A stretch of DNA of 64,000 bases from Terriglobales bacterium. Its GTDB lineage: Bacteria > Acidobacteriota > Terriglobia > Terriglobales > Acidobacteriaceae. The stretch's first letter is position 1. Each line of letters starts with the position of its first letter. Below the pieces are notes generated by a model. The model made no database searches and had not been told where the DNA came from. It saw nothing but the letters and a program-made list of their open reading frames with translations. The position numbers and the translations under genes were made by a program. The stretch is from assembly GCA_036265385.1 (NCBI GenBank), contig DATAPD010000046.1, forward strand, positions 27,059-91,058, given 5' to 3'. Below, in pieces: positions 24,262-50,517 of this stretch.

Positions 24262-24675
24262 TCAAGCGGCTCTTCTTCGTTTCCTGCGGACCTGTGGGGT
24301 ATCGGTTAATTCAGCAACCGCGGTTGTCACCGCTCCGTGAGCCAGGAAGAAGTTCTTTTCCCGTCCATCGAACGCGAGGAACTCTGGCAGCATCGCAGTC
24401 ATTGCCCCAAGTCCGACATCGATATCCCGATGCGCTTCCAACGTTATAGTTTTCATTCCGTCGCCGTCGTAGTCAGTGAGAAGACTAAGAGCAAGCTGCG
24501 TTCCGCCGCCTACCAGCGCTGCCAAAGAAGCGCGTTGATTGCGACGCCAGAAGAATGCTGCTGAAAGCAGAGATGCGGCGACGGACAGATAATCGATGGT
24601 CGCGTGCGCTTGCGGCGAAATTCTCCGAGGCAGAGGCTTGACTGCCATTTTGACTGCATTGTTCAGCATAGGCAT
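24262..24675 (-). CDS. Hypothetical membrane protein
   Basis: 137 aa with two to three hydrophobic segments and a basic tail (RRKRRRAA). I recognise no family. Confidence 0.4.
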   Translation of the reverse strand: MPMLNNAVKMAVKPLPRRISPQAHATIDYLSVAASLLSAAFFWRRNQRASLAALVGGGTQLALSLLTDYDGDGMKTITLEAHRDIDVGLGAMTAMLPEFLAFDGREKNFFLAHGAVTTAVAELTDTPQVRRKRRRAA

Positions 24676-24702
24676 AGAGTGCTCCGGTTTGTGTAATTGA
24701 AA

Positions 24703-24924
24703 TTAGTCGCGCGTGAAGATACCGGCGAAAGCGAACCCAGAGGCAAGCCCCAACAACCCGGCTATGCCCGCGACAATCGGAAAGTGCTCGCGGGCTTGAT
24801 TGCTGAAACTCAGTTTGTCGCGAGTCTCGTGAACTTTCTCGCGAAGATCCGAGGCTGTCTTATGAAGCTGCTTCCGCTGCTCAATCGCTTTGAGTTGGAG
24901 ATTGTCTATCTGCGGAGTGCTCAT
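24703..24924 (-). CDS. Small tail-anchored coiled-coil protein (YqjK-like position)
   Basis: Start at MSTPQ, overlapping the upstream stop (ATGA). It has an N-terminal coiled coil and a C-terminal TM (IVAGIAGLLGLASGFAFAGIF). Confidence 0.4.
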   Translation of the reverse strand: MSTPQIDNLQLKAIEQRKQLHKTASDLREKVHETRDKLSFSNQAREHFPIVAGIAGLLGLASGFAFAGIFTRD

Positions 24925-25346
24925 ATCTGCTGCCTCGCTTCGTTCTCCAGCCACGCTTTATCTTCTTTAAGCACAGCTATGGTCCTCTGCGGCACGAGGC
25001 GCGCCAGTTTGAATTCCCGTTTCGCGACGTAAAGCGCGATCGCTCCGAGAAGACCCCAGAGCACGCCGCCGCCAAGCAGTGCGAACACCCATCGATATGG
25101 AGTGTTCCCGATCAAAACAGCGGCCAAAGCTACGATAGTCGCCGTAATCAAGAGATAAGAGGTTGCTAGAAGAAGGATTCCGACAACGGCTAATGGCGCA
25201 GCCGTTTTCCAATTGGCGGTTTTCTCACGAAGTTCGCTCCTGAATAGTTCGAAGCGCGTTTCGGCGAATTCCTTTAACTCGCGCTTCATCTCGGAAGCGA
25301 TGTCCGATATAGAGCGCGCGGTGTGATTTCTGTCGACTTCATTCAT
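24921..25346 (-). CDS. Holin-X / YqjE-like (Phage_holin_3_6, former DUF1469) membrane protein
   Basis: MNEVDRNHTARSISDIASEMKRELKEFAETRFELFRSELREK followed by two TM helices. This pattern is typical of the family. Confidence 0.6.
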   Translation of the reverse strand: MNEVDRNHTARSISDIASEMKRELKEFAETRFELFRSELREKTANWKTAAPLAVVGILLLATSYLLITATIVALAAVLIGNTPYRWVFALLGGGVLWGLLGAIALYVAKREFKLARLVPQRTIAVLKEDKAWLENEARQQI

Positions 25347-25665
25347 GGTTGGATCTCCATACACGGATTAGAGCTCCAAGTACAAAAGCTGCCCCGGCAG
25401 TGATGGCCACTAACTTCATCGGATCGTCAGCCCGCATGCGTTCAAACTCATCGGACAGGCCTTCCGCCCAAAAGCGCACCTTCGCGATTCCTGATGAGAG
25501 GGAATAGCCAGCACGCTGGGCGATACTCTGGCCATCCGATGCAGAGGTTTCTATGGGAACCATTTGTAGGCTTTCCGTCACGACAACGATTTCGGGCTCC
25601 GAGGTGATTTGGCTCGGGTCGTTCACATTAGGGTCGGGATTCAACGGCTCAGCTCGTTGAGCCAT
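25339..25665 (-). CDS. DUF883 (ElaB/YqjD-like) tail-anchored protein
   Basis: Start at MAQRAEP with AAGGAG upstream. The C-terminus …RADDPMKLVAITAGAAFVLGALIRVWR resembles the ElaB/YqjD C-terminal anchor. Confidence 0.5.
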   Translation of the reverse strand: MAQRAEPLNPDPNVNDPSQITSEPEIVVVTESLQMVPIETSASDGQSIAQRAGYSLSSGIAKVRFWAEGLSDEFERMRADDPMKLVAITAGAAFVLGALIRVWRSNHE

Positions 25666-25790
25666 AGGCACGCTCCTTGACTGCTGCCTTTCTGATGAAA
25701 ACGGATCGCGCTGGGTGGGATCAAAAGGCAGAAAGATTCGTAAGCAGGTTTTCGGCAAATCGTGTTTGCCCCGGTTCTGGTAAATCTGGG

Positions 25791-27635
25791 CTACTTCATG
25801 AGGGCATCCAGAGTCTTCTCTGCCTGCTGATGAAGATCGGGGGGAGCTCCATAGAGGACTTTTGCTGAGTTGCCGGACTGATCGAAAAGAAACAAGGTAG
25901 GGACCGAGGTGATGTCGCCGAAGGCTTGGGCGGTATGGGCATCGGTGATGGCCCAGCGCAATTCGGGGCTGAGCGCTGCAGCGGTTAAGCGAATCTTGTC
26001 CTCGGGAGATTCAACAGCCAGGGCCACCACTGCCAGGTTGTCGCCATACTTCTTCTTCAAGTCGCCCAGCCATTGCAGAGTGGAGCGGCATGGCGGACAC
26101 CACGTAGCCCAAAATTCGACGAGCACAACCCGTCCGGCCAGCTGGTCGCTGGTTAGCGGTTTACCCGAGAGGTCGGTAACTTTGAAAGCCGGAAGTTTGG
26201 TCAACTCGCCGGTTGCTGCAGGTTTGTGCTCACTCGCAACGACGTCTTTTTTGCCGGCGAGGATCAGGTCGATCATCCTGATGAGATCTGCTTTGAATTT
26301 CGCCTGATTGTCAGCATTGCGCCAAGGCGCGTATCGACCAGCGCCTTCGACTTCGCCGAAGTAGCCAAACTCCCGCGGTGCTGCCACGAGAACGTCGTCA
26401 ACAAAAATGGCTGGGTACCCCTTCACGCCAAACTGTTCTGCCAGTTTGGAAGCACCGAAATTTTCGCTGACGAAGGTGACTTGACCGGGGTATTGTGCGG
26501 CAACTTCTTGGACCAGCAAACTTGCTGGATCAGAAATGTTTCAAGTGTAGGGCCATCGAACTAGAGTGAGGGTGACGGTTTTGCCTGATATGTGGTCGAC
26601 GTGGCGGGCAGGTTTTTGAGCCGCAAGATAAGCAGGCAACACCTGCTCAACTATCACCTGTGCGGCCTTCCATTCATCAGGAGTGGGAGCCGAACCGTCG
26701 TTGTGTGCGATATAAGACGATGCACGTTCGAGAAATAGTTGAGCGATCGAGTCGTCCTGCTCCGAGGATGCAGTTTTGTTGAGTTGGCTTTCTATTTCCA
26801 ACTTGAGTTTGGACTGTTCAGTTTGCTCTGGTACGGCAGTGTCCAGCATGCCGTACTGCCGTGTTGCCTCGAGATACTGGTACAGACTTCCGGCATAAAA
26901 CTTTTGGGAATCGAGTTCCTGCGCGAGTTTGAGCGCCGAGTTCAACGCGATGAAGCGAGGATGCAATTCAATTGACTTCGGTGGACGAAACGCATCGTTC
27001 GTTTTTTGTTGAAGCTTCTGCAATTCGGGAAGGTAGGACCGAAGTTCAAAGCCAGATGGTTTCGAGTCGGGATGAACCTCGGAGCAAAACTTGGCGAACT
27101 CTGCTTCGCCCTGGGCTTGGCCCACATAGAACAGGCCTTCCTGTGGTTTGGTAGCGGTAGCAAAGCCCCTTCCACCATCAAGAAGAGGAATCGATCGACC
27201 CTGCGCCGCTTCCGCCAACGCGCGCCATGCAATGGGCACGTTGCTCCATGTTTTCTTGCGCGCTTCCTGATCGTAGGCAGTGAGTTGAAGGCTGGTCTTG
27301 TTCCATTCCGCTTCGAAAGCGGGCAAGCTGTCTCCAATCGCAGCCGATTTCTCGTCGATTGTCCGGCCGCCTGAAAGCAGATCCTCTGCCTGAGCCAATT
27401 CCTCCATTGCGAGATAAAGATGTCCAGACTTCAGGGAGTCTTTCGCCCCCTTCAAGCTATCGGAGACCATCTCGTTGACGGCTGAAAAATCCTTCGACGT
27501 GATCGGTTTGTCTTTCAGAGAGCGTTCCAGTCGATCGATCTCCGCCTGAATTTGAGAGGAAGGCGTTTGGGCGAGGGCGATGAACGCACACAAAACAAGA
27601 GCAGACAGCAATAAGACAGTGCGGCAGTTTCTCAT
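25791..27635 (-). CDS. Secreted multidomain protein read through an in-frame TGA (26541-26543): unknown N-domain, thioredoxin fold with U-x-x-S, and TlpA-like CPPC domain (putative selenoprotein)
   Basis: Track ORFs 26541..27647 and 25791..26519 are in the same frame, separated only by TGA plus 7 sense codons. The Trx fold is split by the TGA: beta1 (TVTLTLV) lies before it; alpha1, beta2 and the cis-Pro (GYPAIFV) lie after it. The signal peptide is MRNCRTVLLLSALVLCAFIALAQ. CPPC is at 26088-26099. Confidence 0.6.
26504..26536 (-). promoter_or_regulatory. SECIS-like stem-loop downstream of TGA 26541-26543
   Basis: mRNA: UGA-AACA-UUUCU-GAU-CCAGCA-AGUU-UGCUGG-UCCA-AGAAG. The 6-bp upper stem starts 12 nt after the UGA and the apical loop AGUU contains GU. 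There is a 5-bp lower stem. Confidence 0.5.
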
Positions 27636-27689
27636 GCGGAGCTCCACAGCATAGACGCAGGTGCTGCCCCGAGGTGAGCTCTGTGCAGA

Positions 27690-28415
27690 CTAATGAACTC
27701 GCTGGATTGCGGCTTCCAGTTCGGCTGGCTTGAACCCGAACGGGCCGGGCTTGCTCTTGTACGCGACTCGCCCTTGGGTATCGACGAGATAGAGCCGATC
27801 CGGCCATCCTGTATAAGCGCTTTCTGTCACGTTGTTGAATTCGTCGATCACTGCGGGAATCTTAATTCCGAGTCGATTTATGCATGTGCCGGCGAGGGAG
27901 ACACGCTCAGCGTCATCTCGCGGGCTGGCAAAAACCAGATTCTCTTTCACATTGTTCTCTGTTTGCCAAACATCGCTCGGATGAGCTTCCAGGATGTAGA
28001 CGATCAGGAATGCGATATGATCGCCGTACTTTTGATAAAGGCTGTTTAAGGCGGGAACCTCCCGTCGGAACGGCGGTCAGGTGTAGCTGCCAAAGACCAG
28101 CACGACTGGTTGCTTCGAGGCGAGGGCGCTCAGTTGAACGTGCGCGCTCTTGTCGAGCTTTGGTAAATCGAAATCGGTAGCGGGGTCACCGACGCGAAGC
28201 TGTCCGGCACGAGCTTGAGTCCACAATGTCTCAAAGGGCAGGATCAAGAAGACGGCGTCGGGCATGTGGGACATGACTCGGCCAAAAGTCTCGGGTGGCT
28301 GATGCATAGCCCAGACGATGAGTCCAGCAAAAGCGATATACAACATCAGCACAAGCGCTAGCCCGCGCCGTAGCCATTTTTTGGTGGAAATGCTCAACCC
28401 CATGTGAGGCAGCAT
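27690..28415 (-). CDS. Iodothyronine deiodinase-family protein with in-frame TGA (28077-28079) at the catalytic Sec position; N-terminal membrane anchor
   Basis: Track ORFs 28077..28415 and 27690..27950 are in one frame. My manual translation across the gap has no other stop. It reads …VVLVFGSYT-TGA-PPFRREVPALNSLYQKYGDHIAFLIVYILEAHPSDVW…PDRLYLVDTQGRVAYKSKPGPFGF…. This matches the vertebrate DIO motifs FGSCTUPxF, FLVIYIEEAHxSDGW and PERLYI..G.I.YKG..GP. Confidence 0.8.
28050..28066 (-). promoter_or_regulatory. SECIS-like hairpin downstream of TGA 28077-28079
   Basis: mRNA: UGA-CCGCCGUUCC-G-A-CGGGA-GGU-UCCCG-C-C. The 5-bp stem (plus a G-C pair beyond one A.C mismatch) starts 10-12 nt after the UGA. 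The apical loop is GGU. Confidence 0.5.
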
Positions 28416-43693: not shown

Positions 43694-44079
43694 TAGAGAA
43701 ATTGCAAGGGGCAATTAAAAAATCTGAACATCTGCCGAAGAGAGGGAGAACCACCGGTGCGCATTCCACGCAACCAATCCAGAATTGGACCTCGGGTCTT
43801 TGCTCGTGACCTTCAACTTGATCATCACTCTGTGTCCCGCATCGTGTTCACTTAAGTTGCAACTTACTGCAGAACACACCTCCGTATCCTTTTGTTTCCA
43901 CGCCGCGTAAGCCTCAAGCCTGCTTGCCCGTTTGCCGAAATCGCTTCTCCTCGCGCTTTGGCAGACGTTCTGCAATAAAGGATTCGCCTCCCCAAGTTTC
44001 CTTGTCCCCGAAGGTGCCAGCCAGTCCGATCTGTGGCTGGGTTGAAGCGTTCTGCTCAATCTTCCTCCCCGGAGATCCG

Positions 44080-47000
44080 ATGACCGCATTCAAGCGCTTT
44101 TTCATGGCGTCATTGCTCGTTGTGTGCTGTGTTTTCGCACTGACTGCTTCCGTTCCGAATGTGCCGTCCGGCACCTGGCAAGCATGGGGGGACATGAGCG
44201 TGGCCCGGCAAGGCGCCGCCACGGTTCGGCTACAAGATGGAAGACTGCTAATTGTTGGCGGGTCTGATGCGAATGGTCCGCTCGCGAGCGTAGAAATCTT
44301 CGGAAATGATGGCACCTTCAGCAATGCGCAGCCGATGCACGCAGCGCGTACGGGTCATGCCGCGACCATGCTGACGGATGGGCGAGTGCTAGTCAGCGGC
44401 GGTGCCAGCAGCGGTGGCAATGTGACGAATGCCACCGAGATTTACGATCCCGCTTCGGATTCATGGACTGTCGTTGGCGGCGGGATGGTTGATGCGCGCG
44501 CGGGTCACACGGCGAGCTTGCTGTTGGATGGACGAGTCTTCGTCGCTGGAGGACGCGATTCCTCCGGCAACGCACTTTCCAGCACAGAGATTTTCGATCC
44601 GATCATGCAAGGCTTTATCCCCAGCGCGACGATGGGTTCGCCGCGAACGAACCACGCGGCCGCCATGCTGGGCGATGGACGCGTGTTTCTAATTGGAGGT
44701 AGTGATGGCGCAAACACATTGAACTCCGTGGACATTTTTGATCCCGTTGCCGGAACGGTTGCCCCTGGACCAGCTCTGTCTACTCCTCGGTCAGCGGCCA
44801 CTGCCACGACCACATTGGATGGCAAGGTCGTTGTAATCGGCGGCAACAATGAATCCGGAGACCTAGCTTCCATTGAAATCTTCGATCCTTTCGTTGGGAC
44901 GTTTGCGCTTTCATCTGCGAGCCTCACAGCCCCTCGTTCGGGCCACAGGGCTTTCCTGCTACCGAACAACAACGGTGTGCTGATTGTTGGAGGAACATCT
45001 GCAGGAACCGACTTGAGTAGCGCGGACCTTTACCAAACATGGAACGATACCGCGCAAGCGACAGGTGCGATGGCGGGGGCGCGTTCAGGACTGAGCGGAA
45101 GTGCGCTGAACACGGATGGATTACTACTAGCGTTTGGCGGAACTAACGCATCGACAGAGCTGTACGGATTCCCGACGGTGAAAACTGACCAGACGGATTA
45201 CCCTCCGGGAACCCCGGTGACGATCACAGGCAGCGGTTGGCAGCCCGGCGAAACAGTTACCTTGACCTTGGCCGAGTCACCCGATCTGGACACCCATCCG
45301 GTGATGACTGCGGTAGCGGATGCGAATGGTCACATTGTTAATGCCGATTTCGCGCCCGATTTGCATGATCTCGATATCCGGTTCTACCTGACAGCGGTCG
45401 GGAGTGTTTCCGGCCGACAGGCGCAGAACACATTTACTGACGCGAACCGGCAGATCAACATCACCGGGTTCAGTATCAACTCGCCTTCGGGTGCTACCGA
45501 CAACACGATGAACGTGTCGCAGCAGTTCAATGTTCATTTGGTTTACAACGTTTCGGGTGGAAGCTGGACCAATGTCGGGCCAGTGTTGACCGTGCCCACC
45601 GGGTGGAGCAAGAGTGCGGATCCGGCGACCCAGAGTATCTCCAACACAACCAACCGTACCGCGGATTGGACCGTAACTCCGCCTTCAAGCCCAGGCAGCG
45701 GGGCGATTTCGGTTTCTGTGAACGGTACAGTTGCGAATCCCGATAACTGCAACCAATGTCCCGCGACGGGCAGTTTCAATGCGACGGCGGTAAACCCAGC
45801 CTCTCTGAGTATCTCCAGCATGACTGCAGCGAAAACTGTCGGTGGTGGAACGACGGCGAAAACCGGCGATGCAATCACCGTGACAATGGTGGTGGCGAAT
45901 GCTGCAGCGCCGCGCGCGACCGCGAACTCCGTCGCACCCTCATTATTGACGGTGAATGCCTCCGGTGCCACTGGAACGTGCTCTGCGAGTGGAACTGCAG
46001 CCGGGACCATCGCAGCGGGCGGGAATCGAACTTACACGTACAGCTGCACAGTCACGGGCGGCAATGGCACATTGAGCTTCACTGGTTCGGCGGCGGGCAC
46101 CGACGAAAACAGTTTGGCGGCTGTAAGTTCAGGCAGCGCTACAACCAATTCCATCACAATCGACAACGTTGTTCCTGCTCCGCCATCAACGCCCGATCTG
46201 GATCCTGCGAGCGACAGCGGGGCGTTGAACAACGATGACATCACGAACGTTCAGAAGCCCAAGTTCAACGGAACAGCGGAACCGGGCGCGACCATCACCC
46301 TGCTTGTCGATGGAACAGCGAATGGCACAGCTGTTACGGATGGCTCCGGGAATTGGTCGGTAACAGCAGCCAATAACATTACAGATGGCCAGCATTCGAT
46401 CACCGCAACGGCGACGGATGCCGCAAACAACGTTTCGTCGCCCTCGGGGGCGTTAAGCGTCAAGATTGACACGGTCGCGAATCCACCGTCGGCGCCAGAT
46501 CTCGATCCAGCAAGCGACAGCGGCGCACTGAACACGGATAACATCACGAACGTCACGACCCCGAAATTCAACGGCACAGCGGAGCCGAATGCTTCGGTGG
46601 AAGTCTTCCGTGGAGGTTCGACATCTCTCGGAACAACAACCGCCGATAACTCAGGAAACTGGAGTTTGACGGTTGCTTCAGCCTTAGCAGACAACATCTA
46701 CAGCATCACTGCGAAGCAGACCGATGTGGCTGGGAATATTTCGAATGCATCTGGAGCGCTCAGCCTAACTATCGATACAGTGCCGCCGAGTGCCCCATCA
46801 TCGCCAAACCTCAGTTCGAGTGACGACACTGGGATTCTGAACAACGACAACATCACGAATAAAACCAGCAATCTCAATTTCACGGGTTCAGCCGATCCGA
46901 ACATAACCGTGTCTCTGTTTGAGGGCGCAACGCAACTAGGCACAACCACTGCGAACAACGGGTCAGGGAATTGGACCATCGTTGCTCCAGGGCCATTTGC

Positions 47001-50000
47001 GCCTGGGACTCACGTCTTCATTGCGAAAGCGACAGACGTGGCCGGAAATACGAGCACATCAGTTCCGCATACCGTGGTGATTGATACGACCTCCCCAACG
47101 GTCACGATCAACCAGGCCGTGGGACAAGCGGATCCGGCGGTAACAGGCCCCATCAACTTCACTGTTGTATTCAGCGAAGCCGTCACTAATTTCGCGACAG
47201 GGGATGTCACTCTGAGCGGAACGGCCGGCGCGACGACCGCCGTTGTTACCGGCAGCGGAACAACTTATAACGTCAGTGTGAGCGGTATGACGTCATCCGG
47301 CACGGTGATTGCTTCGATCAACGCTGGTGTTGCGACAGACACCGCTGGTAACGGCAACACTGCTTCCACCAGCACTGACAACACTGTGACCTACAACCCC
47401 GACAGTAAAGCACCAATCGTTACGATCAGTTTCGGAGCGCCTGATGGACAAAATGGCTGGTTTGTTCATTCCCCTGTTGCGGGAACTGTCACGGCAAATG
47501 ACACGACAACTGGCAACAGCAATGTCACCGCGATCAGCTGCACGGATGGAGTGAACGCGCTTGCCGTCGGATCTCTTGCCGGAATCGGAACACCGAGCGC
47601 GAGCGGCTCGATCTCTGTTTCTGGCGACGCGACGCATAGCATTTCGTGCGCGGCTACTGACAGTGCGGGAAATACGGGGGCATTTACCGGCTCAACCGTG
47701 ATGCCGGTTGTAGTGAAAATTGATACTCAGGCACCAACTGGCGTAACAGGAAGTGCGGCACGCGCAACTGACCACAACGGTTGGTACAACGCGTCAGTTG
47801 GGATCACCTTCAACGGCACCGATTCCACATCTGATATTGCAAGCTGTACGAGCACCACTTACACAGGGCCCGATTCTGCAACTGCATCGGTGCTCGGACA
47901 TTGCACGGACAATGCTGGCAACACAAGTGCTGATGTAGCTTTCAATTTCAAATTTGATGCGACAGCGCCGACCGGCGTAGCTCTTTCTGTTACAGCTGGA
48001 ACAATGGGAACGAATGGCTGGTACACGAGCGACGTGACTGTGCACACTTCCGGAACGGAAGCTGTCAGCGGTCCCCCAATTTGCACTGCAGATCAGATTC
48101 AGTCGGCGGAGACAATGGGCCAAGTCTTCAATGGGTCTTGCACGAATGATGCGGGATTGTCGGCGAATGCGGCTGCACTGACGGTCAAGCTGGACAAGAC
48201 GCCGCCCTCTGCAAGTCTGGCTGTTTTTGCAGGAACGCTTGGTAATGCCGGCTGGTACATAAGTGATGTAACGGTTCGCGCGTCTGGCTCCGACTCGATC
48301 GCCTCACCTGTAACGTGTACTGCGGATCAATTCCTCACGACAGACAGCACGGGCCATACGTTCGGTGGTTCGTGCACCAACGATGCTGGTCTCACGGCGA
48401 ATGCCACAGATCTAACTGTCAAGCTCGACAAGACAGCGCCTACAGTCCAGATCACACCTTCGCGATCGGCCGATCACAACGGCTGGTACAACCATGGGCT
48501 GTCGTTCACGAATCCTGGAACAGACTCGACATCTGGAATTGCCAGCTGCACGACCCCCGCTGCGTATTCCGCTCCAGACAATGCCAATGCCGTTGTCACT
48601 GCGACCTGTACAGATAACGCGGGGAACGTGGGCAATGGCTCGTTTAACCTCCAGTACGATTCGACTCCTCCTACGAACGTCTCGGGAGCGCCGAATCGTG
48701 CCGCCGATCACAACGGTTGGTACAACCACGCAGTGGATGTCGTGTTCTCTGGGCTGGATGCGACCTCGGGAATCGAGGCTTGCACAAGCACAAACTACAG
48801 TGGACCGGACAGCGTGAGTGCATCAGCCAACGGCCACTGCACTGATAATGCCGGCAACAGTAGCGCTGACGCTGCATCTCCGGCGTTCAAATTTGATTCG
48901 ACTCCGCCGACGGCGACGTCAGTCGTATCCGCGGGTACAGCCGGGACGAATGGTTGGTACACGAGCAACGTGACCGTTCATACGAGCGGCACAGACAACA
49001 TCAGCACTCCGGTGGCGTGCGATGCGGACCAGGTGATTAGTACGGAGACCGCGGGCATCCCAGTGAGTGGCAATTGCACGAACGATGCGGGCTTGTCGGC
49101 TGTGTCGACCGCGATCACCGTGAAGTTGGATAAGACGCCGCCCACAAATGTCTTGCTGACAGCAACAGGCACTGTTGGACTGAACAGTTGGTACACCAGC
49201 GACGTCAGCATCAAGACGACTGGGCAAGAGTCGATCAGCACGCCGCTGGTTTGCACGGCGGATCAAAGTCAAACTACAGATACGATCGGTCAGGCCTTCC
49301 ACGGTTCTTGTACAAACGATGCCGGATTGGCTGCAAACGCGACGGATCTCACGATCAAGCGCGACGCGACTCCTCCGGTTCTCACAGTAACGTTCACGCC
49401 GGATGCCCCAGATGGAAATAATGGCTGGTGGAAGACGCCGGGTGGAGTTCCGTATAACTGGACGTGCAGCGATGTTACGTCTGGAGTTGACGGTTCTTAC
49501 GCCGGTGGATGTCCGACTCCTGCCAGCGGCACGACAACAGCAAACGGGACCACGCACTTTGGTGGACAAATCCGAGATCAGGCAGGGAACTTGAGTGTCA
49601 TGGTTTCGCGCGACCTGAAATTGGACAACGTTGCGCCGGTCGTTACGTGGAATTCGGCAGGTGACACGTGCTCATTGCCGGGCAACTCCGGATGGTGCCG
49701 TGGAACTGAAACGGCAGCATTCACAGCGAGCGATGCGACGTCTGGCCTCGCCAATCTTGCTCAAGCGTCGTTCACGCAATCGACTGGAACGAATGGTGGG
49801 TCCGTTTCGATTGCATCGGGCAGCGTGACCGATCAGGCTGGCAACACCAACTCTGGTGTGAACGCGGGGCCGTACAAGATTGATAGTGTTGCTCCCACAA
49901 TCACGATTAACAATCCGGCGAATGGGTCGAACTTCCTGCTGAACGCTGCCATTCCGGCGAATTACAGTTGCAATGACTCGACGTCCGGAGTCTCGAACTG

Positions 50001-50517
50001 TGCCGGCCCGGTGACGAATGGATCGAATTTCAGCACCAGTCCGGTGGGATCACACACGTTCACGGTGAATGCCACTGACGTGGCGGGTAATCCAGCCACG
50101 CCGGTTAGCTACAACTACAGCGTGCTTTACGCTTCCGGTGGAATGTGTCTCGGCTCACCAGGGCACGCAATCCTGCAACCGATCAACATGGATGGGACCA
50201 GTGTGTTCAAACTGGGCAGCACAGTGCCAACGAAGTTCCGAGTGTGCGATGCCAATGGAGTTTCCATCGGAACCTCGAATGTTGTGGCGCAGTACGGTCT
50301 GACCTCGGCTGCGAACACTCCCAATATCACGGTGGCTGAAGACATTTACTCAACCACTCCAGACACTGCGTTCCGTTGGGACCCGACTGATCAGCAGTGG
50401 ATCTTCAACCAGAGCACCAAGAACAACTCGACGATGAATGCCAAGGGAGTGACATACTTGCTGGCTATCAAATTGAATGATGGCTCATTCATCTACTTCC
50501 AGTACGGTTTGAAATAA
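44080..50517 (+). CDS. Giant (2145 aa) secreted Kelch beta-propeller plus multi-Ig-like repeat surface protein
   Basis: Start at MTAFKRFFMASLLVVCCVFALTAS with GGAG upstream. Six to seven Kelch-like blades carry DGR(V/L)(L/F)(V/I)xGG (aa 35-365). Three DLDPASDSGxLNxDxITN Ig-like modules span aa 700-1005. About 9-10 NGWY/Cys-containing modules span aa 1115-1850. Further Ig-like domains follow. Confidence 0.8.
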   Translation: MTAFKRFFMASLLVVCCVFALTASVPNVPSGTWQAWGDMSVARQGAATVRLQDGRLLIVGGSDANGPLASVEIFGNDGTFSNAQPMHAARTGHAATMLTDGRVLVSGGASSGGNVTNATEIYDPASDSWTVVGGGMVDARAGHTASLLLDGRVFVAGGRDSSGNALSSTEIFDPIMQGFIPSATMGSPRTNHAAAMLGDGRVFLIGGSDGANTLNSVDIFDPVAGTVAPGPALSTPRSAATATTTLDGKVVVIGGNNESGDLASIEIFDPFVGTFALSSASLTAPRSGHRAFLLPNNNGVLIVGGTSAGTDLSSADLYQTWNDTAQATGAMAGARSGLSGSALNTDGLLLAFGGTNASTELYGFPTVKTDQTDYPPGTPVTITGSGWQPGETVTLTLAESPDLDTHPVMTAVADANGHIVNADFAPDLHDLDIRFYLTAVGSVSGRQAQNTFTDANRQINITGFSINSPSGATDNTMNVSQQFNVHLVYNVSGGSWTNVGPVLTVPTGWSKSADPATQSISNTTNRTADWTVTPPSSPGSGAISVSVNGTVANPDNCNQCPATGSFNATAVNPASLSISSMTAAKTVGGGTTAKTGDAITVTMVVANAAAPRATANSVAPSLLTVNASGATGTCSASGTAAGTIAAGGNRTYTYSCTVTGGNGTLSFTGSAAGTDENSLAAVSSGSATTNSITIDNVVPAPPSTPDLDPASDSGALNNDDITNVQKPKFNGTAEPGATITLLVDGTANGTAVTDGSGNWSVTAANNITDGQHSITATATDAANNVSSPSGALSVKIDTVANPPSAPDLDPASDSGALNTDNITNVTTPKFNGTAEPNASVEVFRGGSTSLGTTTADNSGNWSLTVASALADNIYSITAKQTDVAGNISNASGALSLTIDTVPPSAPSSPNLSSSDDTGILNNDNITNKTSNLNFTGSADPNITVSLFEGATQLGTTTANNGSGNWTIVAPGPFAPGTHVFIAKATDVAGNTSTSVPHTVVIDTTSPTVTINQAVGQADPAVTGPINFTVVFSEAVTNFATGDVTLSGTAGATTAVVTGSGTTYNVSVSGMTSSGTVIASINAGVATDTAGNGNTASTSTDNTVTYNPDSKAPIVTISFGAPDGQNGWFVHSPVAGTVTANDTTTGNSNVTAISCTDGVNALAVGSLAGIGTPSASGSISVSGDATHSISCAATDSAGNTGAFTGSTVMPVVVKIDTQAPTGVTGSAARATDHNGWYNASVGITFNGTDSTSDIASCTSTTYTGPDSATASVLGHCTDNAGNTSADVAFNFKFDATAPTGVALSVTAGTMGTNGWYTSDVTVHTSGTEAVSGPPICTADQIQSAETMGQVFNGSCTNDAGLSANAAALTVKLDKTPPSASLAVFAGTLGNAGWYISDVTVRASGSDSIASPVTCTADQFLTTDSTGHTFGGSCTNDAGLTANATDLTVKLDKTAPTVQITPSRSADHNGWYNHGLSFTNPGTDSTSGIASCTTPAAYSAPDNANAVVTATCTDNAGNVGNGSFNLQYDSTPPTNVSGAPNRAADHNGWYNHAVDVVFSGLDATSGIEACTSTNYSGPDSVSASANGHCTDNAGNSSADAASPAFKFDSTPPTATSVVSAGTAGTNGWYTSNVTVHTSGTDNISTPVACDADQVISTETAGIPVSGNCTNDAGLSAVSTAITVKLDKTPPTNVLLTATGTVGLNSWYTSDVSIKTTGQESISTPLVCTADQSQTTDTIGQAFHGSCTNDAGLAANATDLTIKRDATPPVLTVTFTPDAPDGNNGWWKTPGGVPYNWTCSDVTSGVDGSYAGGCPTPASGTTTANGTTHFGGQIRDQAGNLSVMVSRDLKLDNVAPVVTWNSAGDTCSLPGNSGWCRGTETAAFTASDATSGLANLAQASFTQSTGTNGGSVSIASGSVTDQAGNTNSGVNAGPYKIDSVAPTITINNPANGSNFLLNAAIPANYSCNDSTSGVSNCAGPVTNGSNFSTSPVGSHTFTVNATDVAGNPATPVSYNYSVLYASGGMCLGSPGHAILQPINMDGTSVFKLGSTVPTKFRVCDANGVSIGTSNVVAQYGLTSAANTPNITVAEDIYSTTPDTAFRWDPTDQQWIFNQSTKNNSTMNAKGVTYLLAIKLNDGSFIYFQYGLK

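Follow-up and report, generated by a model that had tools for sequence, protein, structure and literature searches.

Two open reading frames (ORFs) that share a frame and are parted by a single TGA raise the question of whether that codon closes one gene ahead of another or is read as selenocysteine (Sec) inside one gene. The pair lies at positions 25791-27635 on the minus strand of the window, the 64,000-nucleotide stretch of a Terriglobales bacterium contig analyzed here, and is publicly annotated as a 'hypothetical protein' of ~368 amino acids (aa) and a 'TlpA disulfide reductase family protein' of ~239 aa. The exact window sequence (P0001) is itself deposited as 'hypothetical protein'. An earlier note, made from the letters of the window, had proposed that the TGA cuts a thioredoxin fold at the position of a catalytic cysteine and had preferred read-through as Sec over two genes. 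That preference is supported here by Cys-containing homologues, by the conservation of the TGA together with a hairpin behind it, and by naturally split forms of the gene. The two annotated ORFs are almost certainly one secreted selenoprotein in which the TGA is read as Sec.

The frame is open from GTG at 27647 or ATG at 27635 to TAG at 25793-25791, and the TGA at 26543-26541 is its single internal stop, as the earlier note had described. ATG 27635 is the likely start codon because GGAG at 27645-27642 lies 6 nt upstream and the public gene calls (P0001) begin there. Counted from this ATG, the joined product comprises 364 codons, the TGA, 249 codons and TAG, which gives the 614 residues predicted earlier and places Sec at residue 365, within RWPYT-U-NISDPASLLVQEVAAQYPGQVTFVSENFGASK. 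The complete selenoprotein gene thus spans 25791-27635 on the minus strand; it is open except for the TGA, preceded by GGAG and collinear with two uninterrupted homologues.

The joined protein, used as a query, retrieved over 100 close relatives (~368 residues) from Terriglobales/Acidobacteriia metagenome-assembled genomes (MAGs) and soil metagenomes, all those examined ending in ...LVRWPYT. With the middle region as query, the complementary ~239-aa fragments were recovered, labeled 'TlpA disulfide reductase family protein'. Only two uninterrupted homologues were found, P0003 (673 aa) and P0079 (621 aa), both of which align collinearly with 96% of the length of the window protein and carry Cys at the TGA position (RWPYT-C-NLSDPA, codon TGC). 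Nowhere is the protein more conserved than in the block around the TGA, where 15 columns in a row of 19 show no variation, compared with an overall identity of 41-46%.

At the nucleotide level, TGA occupies the same codon in all full-length genome-contig relatives that keep the site (L001-L017 and L019-L022), whose MAGs are assigned to Terriglobia, Thermoanaerobaculia, Vicinamibacteria, Pyrinomonadaceae, Candidatus Eisenbacteria and Planctomycetota. Pattern matching over the collected loci gave 140 hits, 137 with TGA (from more than 130 loci) and three with TGC; the latter were the two Cys forms L081 and L082, which had been fetched separately, and one spurious match. The question put by the earlier note, which residue homologues hold at the aligned position, is thereby answered as TGA at all 137 Sec-form sites (26541-26543 in the window, minus strand) and Cys in both uninterrupted homologues. 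A metagenome scan with a pattern permitting TGA, TGC or TGT yielded at least 119 stretches, with no genuine TGC or TGT family member among the matches listed, and a search with a 45-residue consensus across the Sec site, aimed at Cys forms, produced no candidates. Cys forms make up less than ~3% of family members. The motif is mostly U-(N/S/G/T/H)-(I/L/V)-S, with U-x-x-C in four loci (L015, L016, L094 and L116) and C-N-L-S in both Cys forms.

Some individual loci depart from this pattern. In a Thermoanaerobaculia MAG (L011), two Sec sites lie ~1.8 kb apart (148-201 and 1934-1987), both with TGA and a GGUC-loop hairpin, and are apparently tandem paralogues. A MAG labeled Myxococcaceae (L018:4780-4960) has a ~29-nt deletion that removes WPYT-TGA-NISDP and shifts the frame, and L135 and L159 have lost one hairpin T (AAGTTGCTGG) and are frameshifted; these three are probably decayed or mis-assembled copies.

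Directly behind the TGA lies a hairpin that the earlier note had likened to a selenocysteine insertion sequence (SECIS). At minimum free energy (MFE), the 50 nt that start with the UGA pair CCAGCA with UGCUGG around an AGUU loop and form a lower stem, UUUCU(G)/(C)AGAAG, at -13.6 kcal/mol, an energy that is unexceptional taken alone (z = -1.6). The core hairpin (26513-26528 on the minus strand, nt +16 to +31 counted from the U of UGA) starts 12 nt past that codon, inside the codons for D-P-A-S-L-L, and with the flanking lower stem the predicted bacterial SECIS occupies 26503-26537. G23 and U24, which we take to be the bases recognized by SelB, are in the loop. In an alignment of 132 distinct sequences, gap-free from the UGA onward, the family hairpin at +16 to +31 reads CCRGCA, RGUY, UGCUGG, and 98.4% of cells are paired, a share that falls to 2-50% once the 3' partners are shifted by 1-3 columns. 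The loop-closing positions 22 and 25 covary (A:U in 102 sequences, G:C in 26 and G:U in 2), coupling a Ser-to-Gly replacement with a synonymous UUG-to-CUG change. The covariation analysis suggested in the earlier note therefore agrees with the upper stem and AGUU loop it had drawn, which are both folded and conserved; the lower stem folds in the window sequence but has no conserved register across homologues by RNAalifold.

Most stem positions are invariant, and invariance alone says little; the informative signal lies at synonymous sites. Just outside the stem, the Asp codon is divided between GAC (67) and GAT (65), and the Asn codon between the TGA and the stem is free to drift between AAC and AAT. 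Within the stem, Pro is encoded by CCA in 69 sequences and CCG in 63, never by CCC or CCT, its third position pairing with U; Ala is GCA in 130 of 132, and the second Leu codon is CUG in 132 of 132. Ala codons eight and nine downstream use GCA, GCG and GCC about equally. The Ser codon that supplies G23 and U24 is AGU in all 102 cases, and the Ser codon four upstream is TCN only (TCC, TCT, TCG or TCA). The seven codons from the TGA to the first possible restart are under protein-level selection, with free synonymous change only outside the stem.

On all four counts the hairpin agrees with the bacterial SECIS (bSECIS) model, which calls for a loop of 3-9 nt with G among its first two positions, a stem of 4-16 bp, a UGA-to-loop distance of 16-37 nt and an MFE of -7.5 kcal/mol or lower (PMC13188914 Fig. 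2): the loop is AGUU, the stem has 6 bp (a seventh pair if 22 and 25 pair), the spacing is 18 nt and the energy is -13.6 kcal/mol. The SECIS of E. coli fdhF, the sequence of which was verified against 5,426 E. coli genomes, likewise forms a hairpin directly 3' of its UGA, its 4-nt loop presenting G23 and U24 equally far from that codon, and GCAGGUCUGC is common to fdhF and the GGUC-loop variants of the family at +19 to +28. Unlike fdhF, the family hairpin is without the bulged U17, has a different lower stem and in most members carries AGUU instead of GGUC. In the Cys form L081 the stretch is recoded as CCC GCC AGC CUG AUC, leaving no hairpin, while L082 retains the stem with a GCUC loop that has no GU. 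With the hairpin degraded in both, these Cys forms may be regarded as natural controls.

Relatives in which the N-terminal part is encoded separately were also found. A profile of the N-terminal domain gathered 681 clusters at 50% identity; among the best 150 of these 681, 105 end in RWP(Y/F)T, none exceeds 491 residues and ~18 end ~20 residues before RWPYT, just past the last helix; these ~18 look like members of a two-gene type. In L202:51-1522 and L203:2288-4212, the stop codon of the N-domain gene overlaps the start of a second gene (ATGA). This second gene, of ~290 codons, encodes its own signal peptide, then ...VTVTLVRWP(Y/F)T, the TGA, NLSDPASLL with the same hairpin, and the WCPPC domain; gene callers see of it a 42-codon ORF, a signal peptide plus one strand, ending at the TGA. 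The earlier note had named an N-terminal protein that genuinely ends at the TGA as evidence against its proposal. Homologues with a genuine end do exist in L202 and L203, but they end ~20 residues before RWPYT, and the gene that follows keeps the TGA and the hairpin. Gene fission therefore falls at a domain boundary and not at the TGA, and keeps beta1, the TGA and the SECIS together. That the split falls upstream of beta1 argues for read-through and not for two genes, and the fusion/fission pair links the helical domain in function with the seleno-redox module.

Same-frame ORF pairs split by one TGA are common in themselves, with 43 in the window having at least 60 codons on each side. For comparing them, nt 16 after the U of UGA was used as the bacterial SECIS register. 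Of the 43 pairs, 2 have a GU-loop hairpin with 5 bp or more that starts at this position, namely the gene at 25791-27635 and its deiodinase-like neighbor; four other pairs have such a hairpin at other starts (nt 11, 12, 15 or 19). Most of the evidential weight lies in the comparison with relatives.

This neighbor, the upstream gene at 27690-28415 (minus strand), is annotated by the same kind of break: two ORFs split by a TGA at 28079-28077, within FGSYT-U-PPF, encode a membrane-anchored product. Once joined, the protein matches Pfam T4_deiodinase with an E value of 6e-30 in one stretch across the TGA, and a hairpin with a CGGGA/UCCCG stem and GGU loop begins 12 nt after that TGA. We thus predict a deiodinase-like selenoprotein with its TGA at the catalytic position. 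Deiodinase-like proteins are a recognized prokaryotic selenoprotein family (PMC13188914), and Acidobacteriota with documented Sec use exist, Occallatibacter riparius being listed in deep-Sep. The TGA-containing neighbor gives indirect support for Sec use by the host.

Three other explanations of the interrupted frame were weighed against these data. Gene callers and PGAP annotate two real genes (~368 aa and ~239 aa), the first stopping at the TGA and the second, a TlpA-family protein, starting at a TTG or CTG inside the hairpin, and one subfamily does have a separate N-domain gene. Against such an arrangement, the codons from the TGA to the restart preserve the peptide NISDPAS while drifting synonymously, the Cys homologues read straight through, and the cut would part beta1 and the active-site loop from the remaining thioredoxin fold. 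The true splits, moreover, lie 20 residues upstream and leave a 42-codon ORF that is meaningless alone, and no Shine-Dalgarno-like sequence was seen ahead of the TTG. We consider two genes very improbable. Even less weight can be given to a pseudogene or assembly error, in which a former Cys codon would have suffered a nonsense mutation: some relatives do look damaged (L018, L135 and L159), but TGA recurs at 137 independent sites in several phyla, never replaced by TAA or TAG, both flanks are under purifying selection and the hairpin is conserved. The comparative data effectively refute this explanation. Read-through of the UGA might instead be due to a near-cognate tRNA for Trp, Cys or Arg or to code reassignment, the hairpin serving as a stimulator only; no sel genes are visible in the window, and the Sec call rests on sequence. 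Yet among ordinary stops in the window TGA is the most frequent, ending 16 of 35 long non-overlapping ORFs, and global reassignment of the code was therefore rejected. In addition, homologues hold Cys at the site, the characteristic counterpart of Sec, the hairpin agrees in sequence and spacing with the apical loop of fdhF that SelB binds, and the adjoining gene belongs to a recognized selenoprotein family. Non-Sec read-through is, like the two-gene arrangement, a very remote prospect.

Having weighed these alternatives, we return to the decoded selenoprotein and its predicted structure. AlphaFold2 was run on the Cys homologue P0079, giving a predicted local distance difference test (pLDDT) score of 83 and a predicted template modeling score (pTM) of 0.70. 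From its N-terminus onward the model has a signal sequence, then an all-helical domain (38-345), a compact beta-alpha-beta-alpha-beta-beta-alpha domain and a TlpA-type domain (492-620). Together with the Pfam and Foldseek results given below, this order matches the one put forward in the earlier note, which had listed a signal peptide, a domain of ~340 aa, a Sec-containing thioredoxin domain and a TlpA-like domain with WCPPC. In the window protein, the N-terminus looks like a signal peptide, MRNCRTVLLLSALVLCAFIALA followed by QTP (27570-27635, minus strand), of the secretory/signal peptidase I (Sec/SPase I) type and without a lipobox as read from the sequence, and homologues share equivalent hydrophobic N-termini.

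The N-terminal domain proper (26616-27569, minus strand) is predicted to be all-alpha, with 13 helices in ~320 residues (AlphaFold2 pLDDT 83.8, pTM 0.83). A Foldseek search against the PDB gave no match for it (best E 0.7, template modeling score (TM) at most 0.26), and neither Pfam or NCBIfam nor PDB sequences produced one. At the other end, the C-terminal domain (25839-26198, minus strand) is unambiguously of the TlpA/ResA type, its WCPPC motif lying where the earlier note had located it (CPPC at 26088-26099). It scored 45.7 bits with Redoxin PF08534 (cut-off 26.6) and 42.9 bits with AhpC-TSA PF00578 (cut-off 26), and Pfam Thioredoxin and Thioredoxin_8 were also above cut-off. Foldseek matches of the full-length P0079 model were confined to this domain; the top ones, including ResA, had E values of 1e-7 to 1e-8 and target-normalized TM of 0.83-0.87, the range over ResA and other thiol-disulfide oxidoreductases being 0.82-0.87, with CcmG at 0.72-0.73.

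Between the two lies the Sec-bearing domain (26256-26585, minus strand), a divergent, predicted thioredoxin-like domain with beta1 GKTVTLTLV, the active-site block RWPYT-U-NIS-DPA and a cis-Pro loop GYPAIFVDD, assigned from the P0079 model and hhalign. In that model the domain consists of E359-365, H375-385, E391-397, H402-407, E414-417, E420-423 and H448-466, and Cys370 sits in the loop WPYTCNLSD between beta1 (359-365) and alpha1 (375-385). Structure prediction across the TGA thus gives a fold that spans the site, with beta1 before it and the remainder after it, which supports the claim that the stop cuts a thioredoxin fold. A 30-sequence profile of the middle domain aligned without gaps by hhalign to E. 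coli TrxA, setting W opposite W28, U opposite C32, S opposite C35, Y opposite Y49 and YP opposite I75-P76; the register proposed in the earlier note, with the TGA at Cys32 and Ser at Cys35, was thereby reproduced. In a profile search of PDB sequences, the top 12 hits were eleven thioredoxins and one PDI thioredoxin domain, at E values of only 0.013-0.1, followed by endoplasmin chains from E 0.12.

Several observations weigh against this picture. For the middle domain, the hhalign match to TrxA has an E value of 2.7e-4 and a probability of only 42%, Pfam Thioredoxin scores 13.6 bits, below its cut-off of 23.5, and one HMMER alignment sets U opposite the second thioredoxin Cys. Compared by hhalign with the protein's own TlpA domain, it aligns in the cis-Pro region only (probability 7%). 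In the P0079 model residues 368-373, in the active-site loop, have pLDDT values under 50, and by DSSP alpha1 begins five residues past the Cys; only three or four alignment rows cover the loop, the fragments stopping and restarting there. As to the SECIS, L144:2838-2891 and L192:519-572 carry a variant hairpin, CCAGC-CGGGAU-GCUGG (codons GCC GGG ATG), with no GU in the loop, which could be an atypical or weakened SECIS. Neither selA, selB, selC nor selD was found in the 64-kb window (no tRNA by ARAGORN, no sel gene among the ORFs scanned), so the Sec trait of the host is inferred; Rfam at gathering thresholds gave no match in the window either. A conserved neighbor, such as a CcdA/DsbD protein or a substrate, was not found: the window neighbors, the deiodinase-like gene included, recur in 0 of 53 loci of at least 6 kb, and all-against-all clustering of the flanking ORFs revealed no conserved partner. 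Finally, the assignment of Sec at 26543-26541 is computational, drawn from sequence comparison. Taking both sides together, we hold decoding of this TGA as Sec to be very probable. A thioredoxin-like fold with Sec at the active site is likely for the middle domain; support is good for the thioredoxin-like assignment as such, but not for the precise geometry of the active site. With good confidence, the best explanation of the whole is a single gene for an exported 614-residue selenoprotein that bears its Sec in a divergent thioredoxin fold.

For such a protein a working mechanism can be proposed. SelB and Sec-tRNA(Sec) would be recruited by the hairpin 12 nt past the UGA and Sec inserted. The Sec would lie in the beta1-alpha1 loop at the position of thioredoxin Cys32, with Ser (Cys in a few relatives) at that of Cys35, forming a single-nucleophile UxxS module. 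After export, the selenolate may attack an oxidized envelope substrate, whether a protein disulfide, a sulfenate or a peroxide, and the resulting selenenylsulfide or selenenic acid would be resolved by the WCPPC pair of the fused TlpA-type domain; this pair would presumably be returned to its reduced state by a CcdA/DsbD-type electron shuttle in the membrane. The N-terminal helical domain, at times a separate, translationally coupled gene, could be a dedicated partner, probably for substrate binding. We put the chances of an intramolecular relay from Sec to the CxxC of the TlpA domain at about even. In one locus (L081:1769-7022), the gene for P0003 lies directly downstream of genes for a multicopper oxidase and an outer-membrane efflux protein (OEP), a copper-resistance-like context that did not recur among the 145 related loci searched.

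The chemistry of the Sec domain may be disulfide exchange, as in a CxxS-type isomerase/reductase, or reduction of peroxide or sulfenate, as in glutathione peroxidase (GPx) or 1-Cys peroxiredoxin (Prx); computation does not distinguish the two. A GPx/1-Cys Prx-like selenoperoxidase, recycled by the fused TlpA domain and serving periplasmic peroxide defense, would account for the lone nucleophile with a nearby Ser or Thr (T-U-x-x-S), and UxxT and UxxS are listed for GPx-like, OsmC-like and Prx-like selenoproteins (PMC13188914). The deiodinase-like neighbor, of Prx fold, likewise has T-U. Sec resists over-oxidation, and the strong dominance of Sec over Cys in the family would fit such a role. On the other hand, no similarity to GPx or Prx catalytic residues was detectable, and the Pfam GSHPx and AhpC matches fall only on the TlpA domain; we regard a selenoperoxidase as possible, at rather less than even odds. 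A further proposal concerns regulation and is compatible with the single-gene selenoprotein: the UGA may act as a selenium switch, yielding the helical protein alone without selenium and the three-domain enzyme with it. Bacterial Sec insertion competes with termination, and the N-domain stands as an independent protein in the split forms. A product ending at RWPYT, however, would bear an unpaired beta1, which is disordered in the P0001 model (pLDDT below 50 at 351-364), and no evidence was found that the truncated product functions. A switch of this kind seems unlikely.

Set against known systems, the single-gene selenoprotein combines familiar parts in an unfamiliar order. Its C-terminal domain belongs at superfamily level with TlpA, ResA and CcmG (PF08534, PF00578; cd02966), sharing WCxxC and predicted export. 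Unlike these proteins, it forms only the last fifth of the protein and carries no Sec, and the two upstream domains have no counterpart there; the NCBIfam ResA and TlpA equivalog cut-offs were not reached (~60 bits versus 170-230). Known Sec-containing TlpA-like families are WAxxUGC ResA-like proteins (NF041054), UGC TlpA, thiol:disulfide interchange proteins with UxxC, thiol-disulfide isomerase-like proteins (cd02966, UxxC) and a Redoxin family with UxxC (PMC13188914 Table 1). They too are exported bacterial thioredoxin-fold selenoproteins with the SECIS inside the coding sequence, but their Sec replaces a Cys of the TlpA CxxC, whereas here WCPPC is kept and the Sec lies ~150 residues upstream in a separate thioredoxin-like UxxS domain that Pfam does not recognize. 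The NF041054 model gave 28-31 bits on the window protein (cut-off 300).

Proteins with a single N-terminal nucleophile and Ser at the resolving position include ERp44, yeast Eug1p and engineered CxxS variants of DsbA and thioredoxin, which form mixed disulfides and need a partner for release. The Sec domain resembles these CxxS/monothiol proteins in its lone N-terminal nucleophile plus Ser, a resemblance and not membership: they use Cys, have no fused TlpA-type CxxC domain and are unrelated in sequence. PDI is built of multiple thioredoxin domains, and Neisseria PilB is a fusion of a TlpA-like thioredoxin domain with MsrA and MsrB. The inferred fusion in cis of a catalytic redox domain to a recycling periplasmic TlpA-like thioredoxin domain would parallel both, with the differences that here the catalytic part is a Sec-containing minimal thioredoxin fold and that an extra helical domain without a solved structural relative is present.

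The earlier note had recognized neither the architecture nor a UxxS thioredoxin as a described family. The first part stands: neither this architecture nor the RWPYTU motif appears in a 2026 inventory of 119 prokaryotic selenoprotein families, compared by its table descriptions (PMC13188914 Table 1), no model in NCBIfam release 20 covers the N-terminal or the middle domain, and a full-text literature search for the motif strings returned nothing relevant. The second part does not, UxxS being already listed for Prx-like cd02970, arsenate reductase and rhodanese selenoproteins (PMC13188914). We therefore rate the family as new within a known kind, bacterial thioredoxin-fold selenoproteins with an in-frame SECIS, with hidden overlap with the inventory possible. 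Catalogs would have missed it because searches for Cys/Sec pairs have almost no Cys homologue to use as a seed.

The decoding mechanism is textbook, and new selenoprotein families are regularly reported. What would be unusual among bacterial thioredoxin-fold selenoproteins is the near-obligatory Sec, two Cys forms having been found, which makes the family a natural test of what Sec can do beyond Cys in an exported redox enzyme. The family is large and found mostly in Acidobacteriota; this phylum is dominant in soil and poorly cultured, and its selenium use is little documented. The correction would affect hundreds of soil and sediment MAGs in which a 'hypothetical protein' and a truncated 'TlpA family protein' are one gene, and it brings to light a confidently modeled 320-residue helical domain with no PDB match. 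More tentatively, soil Acidobacteriota and their neighbors may possess a previously unrecognized envelope redox system that depends obligately on selenium, joins the helical partner domain with a UxxS module linked in cis to a TlpA-type CxxC domain, and almost never accepts Cys as a substitute. If so, candidate chemistries would be peroxide/sulfenate reduction or fast disulfide isomerization in an oxidizing periplasm, and a link to copper or oxidative stress may exist.

Other features of the window were recorded in passing. Directly downstream of the selenoprotein gene, at 24262-25758 on the same strand (minus), lie four small ORFs of 139, 147, 83 and 137 aa, successive ones overlapping in three cases (26, 34 and 4 nt). 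One of the four matches Pfam Phage_holin_3_6 (PF07332, E 8e-17) and the others have no family; a gene for a BrkB-family membrane protein comes after them. On the plus strand, a very long ORF of 2,197 aa occupies 43924-50517.

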